From Escherichia coli (GTDB lineage: Bacteria > Pseudomonadota > Gammaproteobacteria > Enterobacterales > Enterobacteriaceae): a DNA stretch of 64,000 bases. The DNA lies in assembly GCF_013122565.1 (NCBI RefSeq), contig NZ_CP053258.1, one strand, 5' to 3'. Positions 53,516 to 57,253 of the stretch are shown piece after piece. The notes beneath the pieces were generated by a model, which saw only the letters and a list, made by a program, of their open reading frames with translations, searched no databases and was not told the DNA's origin. A program made the position numbers and the translations under genes. Position 1 is the stretch's first letter; each line of letters opens with the position of its first letter.

Positions 53516-54306
53516 TCGGTCGACTGCTTCGCGGCGGTTTTATGACCGCTATCTACGCGTACCTGTATATCCCAATCATTATTTTGATTGTGAACTCCTT
53601 TAACAGCTCGCGCTTTGGCATCAACTGGCAGGGTTTTACCACCAAATGGTATAGCCTGCTGATGAACAACGACAGCCTGTTACAGGCAGCGCAGCATTCA
53701 CTAACAATGGCGGTGTTTTCGGCGACGTTTGCTACGCTTATCGGTTCACTGACGGCAGTTGCACTGTACCGTTATCGCTTTCGTGGTAAGCCGTTCGTTA
53801 GCGGAATGCTGTTTGTGGTAATGATGTCACCAGATATCGTGATGGCAATTTCGCTGCTGGTGCTGTTTATGCTGCTGGGTATTCAGCTTGGCTTCTGGTC
53901 GCTGCTGTTCTCGCATATCACCTTCTGCCTGCCATTTGTTGTGGTGACGGTGTATTCGCGCCTGAAAGGTTTTGACGTGCGGATGCTGGAAGCGGCGAAA
54001 GATCTCGGTGCCAGCGAATTTACCATTCTGCGAAAAATCATTCTGCCACTGGCAATGCCAGCGGTGGCGGCGGGCTGGGTGTTAAGCTTTACCCTGTCGA
54101 TGGACGATGTGGTGGTTTCTTCGTTCGTCACCGGGCCGAGTTATGAAATTCTGCCGTTAAAAATTTACTCGATGGTCAAAGTCGGCGTATCGCCGGAAGT
54201 TAACGCGCTGGCAACCATATTACTGGTGCTGTCGCTGGTGATGGTTATTGCCAGCCAGCTTATTGCTCGAGATAAAACGAAAGGTAACACAGGGGACGTT
54301 AAATGA
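53512..54306 (+). CDS. potC: spermidine/putrescine ABC transporter permease PotC
   Basis: 264-aa ORF matching K-12 PotC; 4-nt overlap with potB. Confidence 0.96.
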   Translation: MIGRLLRGGFMTAIYAYLYIPIIILIVNSFNSSRFGINWQGFTTKWYSLLMNNDSLLQAAQHSLTMAVFSATFATLIGSLTAVALYRYRFRGKPFVSGMLFVVMMSPDIVMAISLLVLFMLLGIQLGFWSLLFSHITFCLPFVVVTVYSRLKGFDVRMLEAAKDLGASEFTILRKIILPLAMPAVAAGWVLSFTLSMDDVVVSSFVTGPSYEILPLKIYSMVKVGVSPEVNALATILLVLSLVMVIASQLIARDKTKGNTGDVK

Positions 54307-55349
54307 AAAAATGGTCACGCCACCTGCTCGCGGCGGGTGCTCTGGCACTGGGCATGAGCGCCGCTCACGCTGATGACAACAACACGCTGTATTTCTACAA
54401 CTGGACCGAGTACGTGCCGCCAGGACTGCTCGAGCAGTTCACCAAAGAAACTGGTATTAAGGTTATCTATTCGACTTACGAGTCGAACGAAACCATGTAT
54501 GCCAAGCTGAAAACGTACAAAGACGGTGCCTATGACCTGGTGGTTCCTTCAACCTATTACGTCGATAAAATGCGTAAAGAAGGGATGATCCAGAAGATCG
54601 ACAAGTCGAAGTTAACGAACTTCAGCAATCTCGATCCAGACATGCTCAATAAGCCGTTTGACCCGAATAACGATTACTCCATTCCGTATATCTGGGGTGC
54701 GACGGCGATTGGCGTTAACGGTGATGCGGTGGATCCGAAATCTGTCACCAGCTGGGCCGATTTGTGGAAGCCTGAGTACAAAGGCAGCCTGCTGCTGACC
54801 GACGATGCCCGTGAAGTGTTCCAGATGGCACTACGTAAGCTGGGCTACTCCGGTAACACCACCGATCCGAAAGAGATTGAAGCTGCATATAACGAGCTGA
54901 AAAAACTGATGCCAAACGTCGCAGCGTTTAACTCCGATAACCCGGCTAACCCGTACATGGAAGGTGAAGTTAACCTCGGCATGATCTGGAACGGTTCTGC
55001 TTTCGTTGCACGCCAGGCGGGTACGCCTATTGACGTGGTGTGGCCGAAAGAAGGCGGCATTTTCTGGATGGACAGCCTGGCGATCCCGGCAAATGCCAAA
55101 AACAAAGAAGGTGCACTGAAATTGATCAACTTCCTGCTGCGCCCGGATGTGGCAAAACAGGTTGCTGAAACTATCGGTTATCCAACGCCAAACCTTGCGG
55201 CGCGTAAGCTGTTAAGTCCGGAAGTGGCGAACGATAAAACGCTCTACCCGGATGCTGATACCATTAAAAATGGCGAATGGCAGAATGACGTTGGCGCAGC
55301 CAGCAGCATTTATGAAGAGTATTATCAGAAGCTGAAAGCAGGACGTTAA
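54303..55349 (+). CDS. potD: spermidine/putrescine periplasmic binding protein PotD
   Basis: 348-aa ORF with signal peptide; matches K-12 PotD. Confidence 0.97.
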   Translation: MKKWSRHLLAAGALALGMSAAHADDNNTLYFYNWTEYVPPGLLEQFTKETGIKVIYSTYESNETMYAKLKTYKDGAYDLVVPSTYYVDKMRKEGMIQKIDKSKLTNFSNLDPDMLNKPFDPNNDYSIPYIWGATAIGVNGDAVDPKSVTSWADLWKPEYKGSLLLTDDAREVFQMALRKLGYSGNTTDPKEIEAAYNELKKLMPNVAAFNSDNPANPYMEGEVNLGMIWNGSAFVARQAGTPIDVVWPKEGGIFWMDSLAIPANAKNKEGALKLINFLLRPDVAKQVAETIGYPTPNLAARKLLSPEVANDKTLYPDADTIKNGEWQNDVGAASSIYEEYYQKLKAGR

Positions 55350-55357
55350 TTCAGCAA

Positions 55358-55390
55358 GCGGGCGGTGGTATTACCGCCCGTTTTTTATTT
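55358..55390 (+). terminator. rho-independent terminator of potABCD
   Basis: GCGGGCGGT-GGTATT-ACCGCCCG hairpin followed by TTTTTTATTT. Confidence 0.8.
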
Positions 55391-55462
55391 AGCAAGAATG
55401 AGGCTAATGAGCCAGGACAGTAGAGTTTTATCCCGCTCTTTCGTCGTTATTGTGGTCCGCTC

Positions 55463-55491
55463 GTAGGCCTGATAAGCGTAGCGCATCAGGC
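55463..55491. repeat. REP element
   Basis: Reverse complement reads GCCTGATGCGCTACGCTTATCAGGCCTAC, the canonical E. coli REP unit. Confidence 0.85.
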
Positions 55492-55504
55492 AATGTTTCC
55501 CGCT

Positions 55505-56326
55505 TTATAAGCCCTTCAGCAACTTTTCAACAAATTCTGGCACCACCTGGCTTGCCGGGCCGTAATATTTCTCGGCAAATTCATTACCAACCTGACTCGG
55601 TTCAAGATTGAGTTCCACGGTGTGTGCGCCATGCAGTTTCGCTTCGTGAACAAACCCAGCCGCCGGATAAACATGCCCCGAAGTACCAATGGCAATAAAA
55701 ATATCGGCCATCGACAACGCCATATAAATTTCATCCATACCGAGTGGCATTTCGCCAAACCAGACTACGTGCGGGCGCAAGGGTGCCGGGAACTGGCAGC
55801 AATGGCATTTATCTTCTGGGGTAACGTCTCCGGTCCAGTCGAGAACCTGACCACTTTGTGAACAACGAACTTTCAGCAGTTCTCCATGCATATGAATCAC
55901 ATTGGTATTACCTGCGCGTTCATGCAGGTTGTCTATATTCTGCGTTACCAGCAAAAAGCGATCGCCGAGGGCGTCTTGCAGTTTAGCCAGCGCAAGATGC
56001 GCGGCGTTAGGCTGAATTTCTGGCTGCTGCAGCTGTCGGCGACGGGCGTTATAAAACGCTTGCACCAGTTCAGGATCGCGATCGAAACCTTCCGGCGTTG
56101 CCACATCTTCAACCCGATGTTCTTCCCACAGGCCATCTGCGGCGCGAAAGGTACGAATACCTGATTCCGCAGAAATACCTGCCCCTGTCAGTACGAGTAC
56201 TCTTGGTTTTTCCATTGCTTCCGGCACCACTTTATCTCTGAAAAAAATACGCTGACGCAAACGCTCGCGCAGGCGGCGTTTATTTTTACGAAAACGACTT
56301 AACCGATGACCCCGACGCGACAGCAT
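55505..56326 (-). CDS. cobB: NAD-dependent protein deacylase CobB (sirtuin), long isoform ORF
   Basis: 273-aa ORF with arginine-rich N-terminal extension and internal start [19 protein letters not shown] for the short isoform. Confidence 0.93.
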
Positions 56327-56341
56327 AGCAACCTCTGTTGT

Positions 56342-57253
56342 TTAATCGGTTAGATGTAGGAAGGCCGCACCACGCATTCCTCCCGCATCACCGTGGCGCG
56401 CGCGTTCAATGCGCGGAACACGAGCTACAGGTAAGAGATGACGAGGCAGCCTGTCCGCCAGTTGCGTTGTGATTGCCGGGAAATTCGATAAGCCACCACC
56501 AATGACGACCAGGTCAGGGTCAACAATGGTCAGGATATTTCCCAGACAAACCGCTAATAAATCCAGATAACGCTCAACGTGCGCCCTTGCCTGCTCATCG
56601 CCTTGATCATAAAGCGCAATAATTTCGGGAGCCTGCAACGGTTGATGATAATAGTGTTGATACAGCCACGCAAAACCGCGACCAGACAGATAATTTTCAA
56701 TGCAGCCATGCTGACCACAGCCGCAGCGGCGTAACGGGAAATCCAACCCCATCATGGTTAACGCATCAACCGGCAGACGCATATGGCCAAACTCGCCGGT
56801 AATGTAGCTTTTACCGGTAATCGGTTTGCCGTTGAAAATCAGCCCGCCGCCAACGCCGGTACCGAGAATCAACCCCATCACCAACGGATATTGAGTAAAT
56901 TCATCATCCCAGGCTTCTGAAAGGGCAAAACAGTTGGCATCGTTATCAAGACGAACATCGCGATCAAGACGTGCGCTCAGGTCGGCACGCAGCGGTTTGC
57001 CGCTGGCAGCGGGGACATTAGCGGCATACAGCGTGCCATCTTCTGTTTCCGGCATTCCAGGAATACCGATACCGACAGAACCTTTACAGCCAAAACGTTG
57101 GTCAGCTTCGGCTACCAGTTCACACACTGCATCTAAAAATGCGTCATAGCTGTCACGCGGTGTCGGCACCCGCTTTTCCCACTGCAACTGCCGACCGCTA
57201 TCAAACACGCCAAGCGCAATTTTTGTTCCACCAATATCAAACCCGTAATACAT
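56342..57253 (-). CDS. nagK: N-acetyl-D-glucosamine kinase
   Basis: 303 codons from ATG at 57253 ([20 protein letters not shown]-family motif); matches K-12 NagK. Confidence 0.95.

Follow-up and report, generated by a model that had tools for sequence, protein, structure and literature searches.

The reference arrangement of the chromosomal interval considered here is that of Escherichia coli K-12, in which two genes lie between potD, the last gene of the potABCD spermidine/putrescine transporter operon, and cobB, which encodes a Sir2-family NAD+-dependent deacetylase. The annotation of the K-12 derivative NCM3722 gives the order potD, ymfA (a DUF3592 protein of 153 aa), ycfZ (a TPM-domain protein of 262 aa), cobB, and bears out the order that a preliminary description of the DNA analyzed below had given. 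When K-12 is compared with O157, the ymfA-ycfZ segment corresponds to a K-12-specific one, a 'K-island' as Perna et al. 2001 use the term. Its deletion is visible in every comparison of K-12 with O157:H7, whose arrangement all public O157 genomes have, and is implicit in the status of b1121/ycfZ as a variable marker: on microarrays for E. coli virulence genes, b1121 (ycfZ) is a 'putative virulence' probe whose target is present in some strains and not in others (PMC2749873; it is listed in PMC3091784 and PMC6057003 as well). Mentions of ycfZ in scattered screens come without a mechanism (PMC12057083, PMC12940985, PMC10304320). The short form of the potD-cobB interval is an ordinary gene-content polymorphism, and effectively one that is already known.

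What analysis of a 64-kb stretch of E. coli DNA (the window) adds is the polarity of the change (a loss), the class of the parental allele, the existence of a single junction, and the standing of the REP at that junction as a bystander. The explanation that we regard as very probably correct is that one old deletion of 1,288 bp arose on a parent with a type-2 ymfA allele (one of two classes, defined below), was joined at microhomology, and subsequently spread by descent and recombination.

Anatomy of the potD-cobB spacer

In the window, potD (54303-55349, + strand; its product 99-100% identical in amino acid sequence to E. coli PotD) closes an intact potABCD operon, and cobB (55505-56326, - strand; 273 aa) has nagK and then lolE/D/C downstream of it; both genes are placed by the list of open reading frames and by annotation of matching regions (that of RefSeq in the case of potD). 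The gap between them is 155 bp exactly (55350-55504), confirming the direct adjacency at about that distance that had been described from the sequence alone. With the K-12 YmfA and YcfZ proteins as tblastn queries, no match is found across the whole 64-kb window. The absence of ycfZ and ymfA from this locus, as originally claimed, stands to that extent, and requires the qualification that the first 44 nt of ymfA are retained. Likewise, the statement that the spacer consists of the pot operon terminator and a REP is right about both elements and leaves the ~73 nt between them (55390-55462) unaccounted for. Alignment to the long forms of the locus resolves these ~73 nt into the ymfA translation-initiation region, the first 44 nt of ymfA and a 12-nt linker.

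The predicted intrinsic terminator of the pot operon (55356-55389, + strand) has a 12-bp G+C-rich stem, a 4-nt loop and a T-run 3' of the operon's last gene, which is the make-up of a Rho-independent terminator. A terminator scan places the stem at 55356-55383, with 12 pairs, 7 of them G-C, followed by TTTTTTATTT; the RNA fold has a calculated energy of -20.3 kcal/mol (z = -3.98), and the element is conserved in long and short forms of Escherichia alike. A hidden RNA in the spacer was considered and rejected: the only entry returned by an Rfam scan of 54000-57000 at E<=1 is STnc500, lying inside cobB/nagK and sub-threshold at 13.9 bits against a gathering score of 44.

The former ymfA leader and ribosome-binding region (55390-55406, + strand), delimited by alignments with long and short forms, reads AAGAATGAGGCTA in the window and AAGGATGTGGCTA in K-12, O157 and RM9975, the window having two private substitutions. 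The private leader change AAGGATGTGG>AAGAATGAGG weakens the ribosome-binding site and creates an upstream in-frame ATG at 55398; a further private change, GGT>GTT, distinguishes the window's ymfA remnant from those of other short forms. Judged from the sequence, these changes in the initiation region are consistent with neutral decay.

The remnant itself, which is the ATG and first 44 nt of ymfA (55407-55450, + strand), was identified by comparison with the ymfA genes of E. albertii, RM9975, K-12 and Phytobacter, and runs on as a dead-end open reading frame of 19 codons to a TAG stop at 55464-55466. With only 44 nt of the gene and a stop after 19 codons it falls far short of an intact ymfA (DUF3592, ~153 aa): the PF12158 match of K-12 YmfA covers residues 40-112, and the window encodes none of these. 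The encoded peptide is MSQDSRVLSRSFVV in the window and MSQDSKVLSRSFVG in O157; across the short forms it is MSQDS(R/K)VLSRSFV, with MSQDSRVLSRAFL in E. albertii and MSQDSKVLSRAFL in RM9975. YmfA starts as MSQDSKVFFRIFLGIG in K-12, MSQDSRVLSRAFLGIG in E. albertii, MSQDSKVLSRVFLGIG in Escherichia sp. MOD1-EC7003, and MSQDSKVLSRAFLGIG in E. coli RM9975 and 1EC213. Every short form examined has an ATG and 44 nt that match type-2 ymfA, the class of E. albertii, MOD1-EC7003, RM9975 and 1EC213. From that class the remnant differs at 3-4 of 44 nt, as compared with ~10 of 44 from K-12-type ymfA (both counts made directly on the sequences). No sampled ymfA allele is the exact parental allele, the closest being the type-2 alleles at just those 3-4 differences. 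YmfA homologues at the same chromosomal site in Phytobacter start MQQDAKVFRRIF. The homology of this N-terminus to the remnant establishes that the first codons are integral to the ymfA family and are not captured recipient DNA; since the remnant thus belongs to ymfA, the short form is a deletion rather than a site that was never occupied.

Breakpoint mapping on RM9975, K-12 and 1EC213 places the deletion junction at 55450/55451. Compared with these three long forms the window lacks 1,288 bp, beginning at ymfA nt 45 and stopping 12 nt short of the cobB-proximal REP; the deleted segment holds ymfA from nt 45 to its end, all of ycfZ, a Y-type REP and part of the inter-REP linker. The rest of that linker (55451-55462, + strand, from alignment with long forms) reads TGTGGTCCGCTC in the window and TGCGTCCCCTT in K-12/RM9975; this stretch on the right side of the junction departs from each of the sampled long forms by one substitution and a 1-nt insertion. 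Moving the breakpoint 6 nt further right (GGTC|CCCTTG, with 3-nt microhomology) calls for one substitution and a 2-nt insertion; this alternative being only slightly less parsimonious, the junction is given with ~6 nt uncertainty.

In-register identity at the breakpoints is confined to 'AT', the longest word common to the 80-mers is 5-6 nt and out of register, and breakpoint microhomology amounts to only ~2-3 bp. Direct repeats of at least ~8 nt at both ends with one copy kept, the signature of a repeat-mediated deletion, are lacking, and this anatomy rules out REP-REP, repeat-mediated or homologous deletion. There is an imperfect similarity (10/14 nt) between ymfA nt 42-55 and the foot of the REP; the junction is elsewhere, and a crossover at this 14-nt similarity would have removed the 12-nt linker, which is retained. 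Excision or insertion by a mobile element or integrase, which would call for an integrase or transposase gene, attachment sites, terminal inverted repeats or a target-site duplication at the boundaries, is not indicated: apart from ymfA, ycfZ and REPs the long form carries nothing in the potD-cobB interval, and no flanking duplication was found.

Immediately downstream of cobB lies a single unit (55463-55491, - strand), found in the same place in the long forms of K-12, RM9975 and E. whittamii, that we take to be a REP on account of its 29/29 identity to a REP sequence. The preliminary description's canonical REP unit is, on that match, correctly called. That 29-nt sequence has no match in 100 shuffles (none expected by chance); on the + strand the unit begins GTAGGCC. 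The unit matches the consensus with its GTAG foot, is dispersed and multicopy, and forms an imperfect palindrome outside coding sequence, between the cobB stop codon and the ymfA remnant. A 401-bp query containing it has a median of 11 and a maximum of 30 matches per E. coli genome, and the isolated matches (e.g., hit H90) are confined to query positions 213-245, which are the REP; within the 64-kb window the exact REP subtype is single-copy. Its hairpin (8+2 bp, -13.2 kcal/mol) is not better than those of shuffles (z = -0.8), and the fold by itself is no evidence. The unit stands alone in the window and does not form a BIME, the Y-type partner (CCGGATGGGGCGCGAACGCCTTATCCGG in K-12/RM9975) being inside the deleted segment.

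The suggestion that this REP is a recombination scar does not hold up. The same REP abuts cobB in long forms, and therefore pre-dates the deletion and is a bystander to it; the right breakpoint is 12 nt outside the REP, the left breakpoint is inside ymfA, where there is no REP, and the two ends share only the 'AT'. As this example shows, a REP at a junction should not be taken too readily for the scar of a recombination.

Roughly 13 nt separate the cobB stop codon (55505-55507; the protein ends ...LLKGL*) from the matched REP's 3' end. A 1-bp indel (window 55500-55510; 2774-2800 of the K-12 locus L001) alters the C-terminus of CobB: the window, O157, RM9975 and E1V33 have the 273-aa protein (...LLKGL*), with its stop just outside the REP, and K-12, N9, H5 and BS-01 have a 279-aa protein (...LKGLKAGSIA*), with its stop inside the REP. 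Liang, Rudd and Deutscher in 2015 reportedly found that a REP lying no more than ~15 nt from a stop codon can reduce translation of the gene upstream; to judge by its position, the cobB indel might affect CobB expression through the REP-stop distance.

Origin and distribution of the short form

The history that these facts about the spacer very probably record is as follows. A single old deletion of ~1,288 bp took place on a parental chromosome carrying a type-2 ymfA allele, of the class that E. albertii and E. coli strains such as RM9975 carry today, and the 155-bp potD-cobB spacer is its scar. Because the ends share only 2-3 bp, illegitimate (microhomology) joining is the most likely mechanism, presumably by end-joining or by replication slippage. 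The survivors are the pot terminator, the ymfA ribosome-binding region with 44 coding nt, 12 nt of linker and the cobB-abutting REP; the convergent units are now parted by just the pot terminator and the cobB-proximal REP. Two inner-membrane proteins (DUF3592 and TPM domain) have been lost, with potD and cobB left intact. Since then the null allele has been inherited vertically and, as the haplotypes suggest, has also reached other backgrounds when the conserved flanks recombined homologously.

The distribution of the short form was surveyed in 5,426 complete (closed) RefSeq E. coli genomes. The 401-bp cross-junction query finds a contiguous match in 574 (~10.6%), and the K-12 ymfA-ycfZ pair is found in 4,850 (89%); together these make up 5,424 of the 5,426. 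A 76-nt junction-only probe has exactly one match per genome, at >=95% identity, in 559 genomes, which include O157:H7 (EDL933 and 86-24 among them), O55:H7, O145:H28 and many unrelated human, pig, chicken and environmental isolates; in the O157:H7/O55:H7/O145:H28 lineage the short form looks fixed. All ten short forms inspected at base level agree at the junction, apart from a secondary loss of 3 bp in BS-01, and the junction of Escherichia sp. E1V33, a separate species-level representative, is identical. The window is 95% identical to E1V33 and at most ~98.1% identical to any of the 5,426 complete E. coli genomes over 24 kb (region 30000-56400); its Escherichia lineage is, therefore, not closely represented among them.

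Short forms do not all sit on one flanking haplotype. STW0522 (short) and 1EC213 (long) have 0 differences in 1000 positions of potD, and N9, H5 and BS-01 (short) differ from K-12 (long) at 4 of 800 positions in cobB. The presence of one junction on many flanking haplotypes points most readily to a single event, with descent and homologous recombination thereafter; this recombination history is inferred from 17 loci. Other lesions of the pair also exist: JSMCR1 (L094, 2234-2669) has a different deletion, in which a truncated potD is fused to the last 168 nt of ycfZ, and strain 2017.02.04CC has IS1 copies in the ymfA-ycfZ pair. Given these independent lesions, ymfA-ycfZ is evidently dispensable.

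Allele classes and deeper history of the site

A PotD scan with one genome per species returned 80 loci, among which E. fergusonii, E. marmotae and E. ruysiae are absent; both potD and cobB were found in 65 (61 of them non-Escherichia). In 39 of these 65 the two genes are <=200 bp apart, namely in 38 non-Escherichia species, including Salmonella arizonae, many Citrobacter, Enterobacter, Trabulsiella and Buttiauxella, and in E1V33. The spacers of the adjacent non-Escherichia representatives (Salmonella, Citrobacter, Enterobacter) are mutually unrelated and contain no trace of ymfA. The gap exceeds 600 bp in 21 of the 65, and the potD-cobB spacer is a hot spot for cargo in the Enterobacteriaceae, these 21 carrying 0.7-4.7 kb of unrelated genes: an AMP-binding enzyme; a PTS EIIC with a LacI regulator; EAL/HDOD with an MCP; a two-component system; a GH3 glucosidase with a GntR regulator (cargo downstream of potD in loci L011, L014, L018, L041, L052, L054, L056, L057, L065 and L075).

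Homologues of ymfA occur at this site only in Escherichia (E. coli, E. albertii, E. whittamii and sp. MOD1-EC7003) and in two of three Phytobacter species, and ycfZ is present in all of these carriers but MOD1-EC7003, where the contig stops ~240 bp beyond potD. In Phytobacter the homologues have 58% (YmfA) and 50% (YcfZ) amino acid identity; the pair is found in P. massiliensis and P. diazotrophicus (L013, 4901-6132; L073, 5543-6774) and not in P. ursingii (L072). The pair may have been inserted once, long ago, in a common ancestor and lost many times since, or it may have been acquired independently at the hot spot. Adjacency of potD and cobB, as the commonest state across the family, is probably ancestral at that level, which makes the window's adjacency secondary: the ymfA-ycfZ pair probably arrived no later than the base of Escherichia and was subsequently lost in the window's lineage. 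The genus-level reconstruction draws on four Escherichia species-level lineages with ymfA (ycfZ in three) and one with the short form. Gain and loss are both true, at different depths, and the difference between K-12 and the window is a loss. The preliminary description had left the choice open. That this lineage lost the genes is what the evidence upholds: a genuine ymfA allele is still represented in the short form by its start codon and 44 nt, the ymfA-ycfZ pair occupies this position in 89% of E. coli as well as in E. albertii and E. whittamii, and MOD1-EC7003 has ymfA there. On the timescale of E. coli the alternative, a gain by K-12, is wrong, in view of the remnant and of the pair's presence in E. 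albertii and E. whittamii.

Within E. coli, ymfA is dimorphic, its two allele classes having 78% nucleotide and 74% amino acid identity. The divergence block (L001 1425-2000, from nt ~20 of K-12 ymfA to nt ~140 of ycfZ, compared with L084, the RM9975 locus; absent from the window) spans ~580 bp, is sharply bounded and is ~20-22% divergent, with flanks that differ by 1-2% between K-12 and RM9975. Type-2 ymfA is 90% identical to ymfA of E. albertii and is estimated, from the identity bands of the ymfA-ycfZ survey, to occur in roughly 30% of long-form genomes. Type-1 ymfA is 97-99% identical among E. coli, the divergent 'E. coli' SCPM-O-B-8794 and E. whittamii, where flanks differ by ~5-6%, a pattern which suggests that this allele has moved between species. 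At least three allele classes of ycfZ, 88-91% identical in nucleotide sequence, are mosaic with the ymfA types (L001, L004, L007, L084, L091-L093). Most E. coli are only 90-95% identical to K-12 across ymfA-ycfZ, far more divergent than in potD and cobB. RM9975 has a phage integrase gene directly upstream of potC (L084, 1-596), where potA/potB are expected, which indicates a prophage integrated in its pot operon.

This allelic diversity lends itself to a broader reading of the site, as a long-lived, cross-lineage, multi-allelic polymorphism (two ymfA classes, at least three ycfZ classes and a null allele at ~10%), rather than as a case of simple neutral loss. We consider that reading rather unlikely. 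Were it true, balancing or diversifying selection would be acting on YmfA/YcfZ, for example as the target or entry factor of a phage, colicin or contact-dependent toxin, and the deletion would be an escape allele. A role of YmfA/YcfZ in a defense system was considered and set aside: PADLOC has no matches to the two proteins, Pfam has only DUF3592 and the TPM domain for them, and the literature offers no mechanism. The occurrence of short forms on several flanking haplotypes and in two species-level lineages might also be taken to mean that the site has been deleted repeatedly and independently, REP/BIME elements promoting the event, for example through cleavage by a REP-associated transposase or through REP-templated slippage. 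The right end does lie in the BIME linker, 12 nt from a REP, the imperfect 14-nt similarity of ymfA nt 42-55 to the REP foot is nearby, and independent disruptions do occur (the JSMCR1 deletion and the IS1 insertion in another strain). Against this, all 559-574 short forms possess one and the same junction. That junction is not at the 14-nt similarity, where it would correspond to a 1,301-bp deletion without the 12-nt linker, its left end is within coding sequence that has no REP, its in-register homology is 2 nt, and the one independent deletion, that of JSMCR1, has quite different ends, as recurrence in practice produces. Recurrent deletion is accordingly judged very improbable.

Even less credence attaches to the short form as the ancestral state of Escherichia, with K-12-like genomes gaining ymfA-ycfZ by insertion next to the REP. 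It is true that adjacency is the commonest arrangement in the family (38 of the 61 non-Escherichia representatives at <=200 bp), that the spacer is a cargo hot spot in other genera, and that a gain must have happened at some time. But the spacer of the short form holds the ymfA ribosome-binding site, its ATG and 44 coding nt homologous to ymfA of E. albertii and Phytobacter, so the insertion would have had to bring in a ymfA lacking its first 15 codons, and to place it in frame at a site already encoding them; the spacers of Salmonella, Citrobacter and Enterobacter have no such sequence, and E. albertii and E. whittamii carry the pair. The variant in which an inserted gene captured a native start codon is rejected on the same grounds, the N-termini of Phytobacter and E. 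albertii YmfA being homologous to the remnant and outgroup spacers lacking it. Finally, that the adjacency of potD and cobB is an artefact of assembly or sampling of the window is a notion with virtually nothing to commend it: no support for it was found, and 574 closed RefSeq chromosomes of E. coli share the arrangement, as does an independent assembly of an Escherichia sp. One old deletion from a type-2 parent, joined at microhomology, is the reading that we retain.

Comparison with described loci and elements

A small accessory-gene deletion matters little by itself. It nevertheless provides a clean indel marker of single origin for tracing recombination in the potD-cobB region, and a natural ymfA-ycfZ knockout, in ~10% of E. 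coli, for the study of these uncharacterized proteins.

Among the known arrangements closest to the window locus are the short forms of O157:H7/O55:H7/O145:H28 and of ~170 other complete E. coli, which have the identical deletion junction and the same spacer parts. They differ from it in the length of the spacer (162-164 nt in O157-type short forms vs 155 bp in the window) and at ~6% of its positions; AAGGA>AAGAA in the ribosome-binding site, GTGG>GAGG and GGT>GTT are private to the window. Three spacer variants (AGC, AGA and CTCG) are common to the window and Escherichia sp. E1V33 and are not found in O157. The virulence-array marker describes the same variability, ycfZ being present in some E. 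coli and absent in others, as at the window locus, but hybridization records presence or absence only, and the array papers have no junction, polarity or remnant. Some of the 'absences' scored on arrays may, moreover, be due to divergence rather than deletion, because ycfZ alleles are only 88-91% identical.

The REP of the window is, like other E. coli REP/BIME elements, an exact copy of a common REP, extragenic, 3' of a gene and multicopy; it differs in being alone, whereas the long forms pair it with an inverted Y-type REP in a BIME-like arrangement. The K-12 ymfA-ycfZ locus (b1122-b1121) shares with the window its flanking genes, which are 97-98% identical, the pot terminator, the ymfA ribosome-binding region and start codon, and the cobB-proximal REP. 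The window, in contrast, is without 1,288 bp of that locus (ymfA past nt 44, ycfZ and the Y-type REP), has a remnant that comes from the other ymfA allele class than K-12's, and has a cobB of 273 codons' worth of protein (273 aa) where that of K-12 specifies 279 aa.
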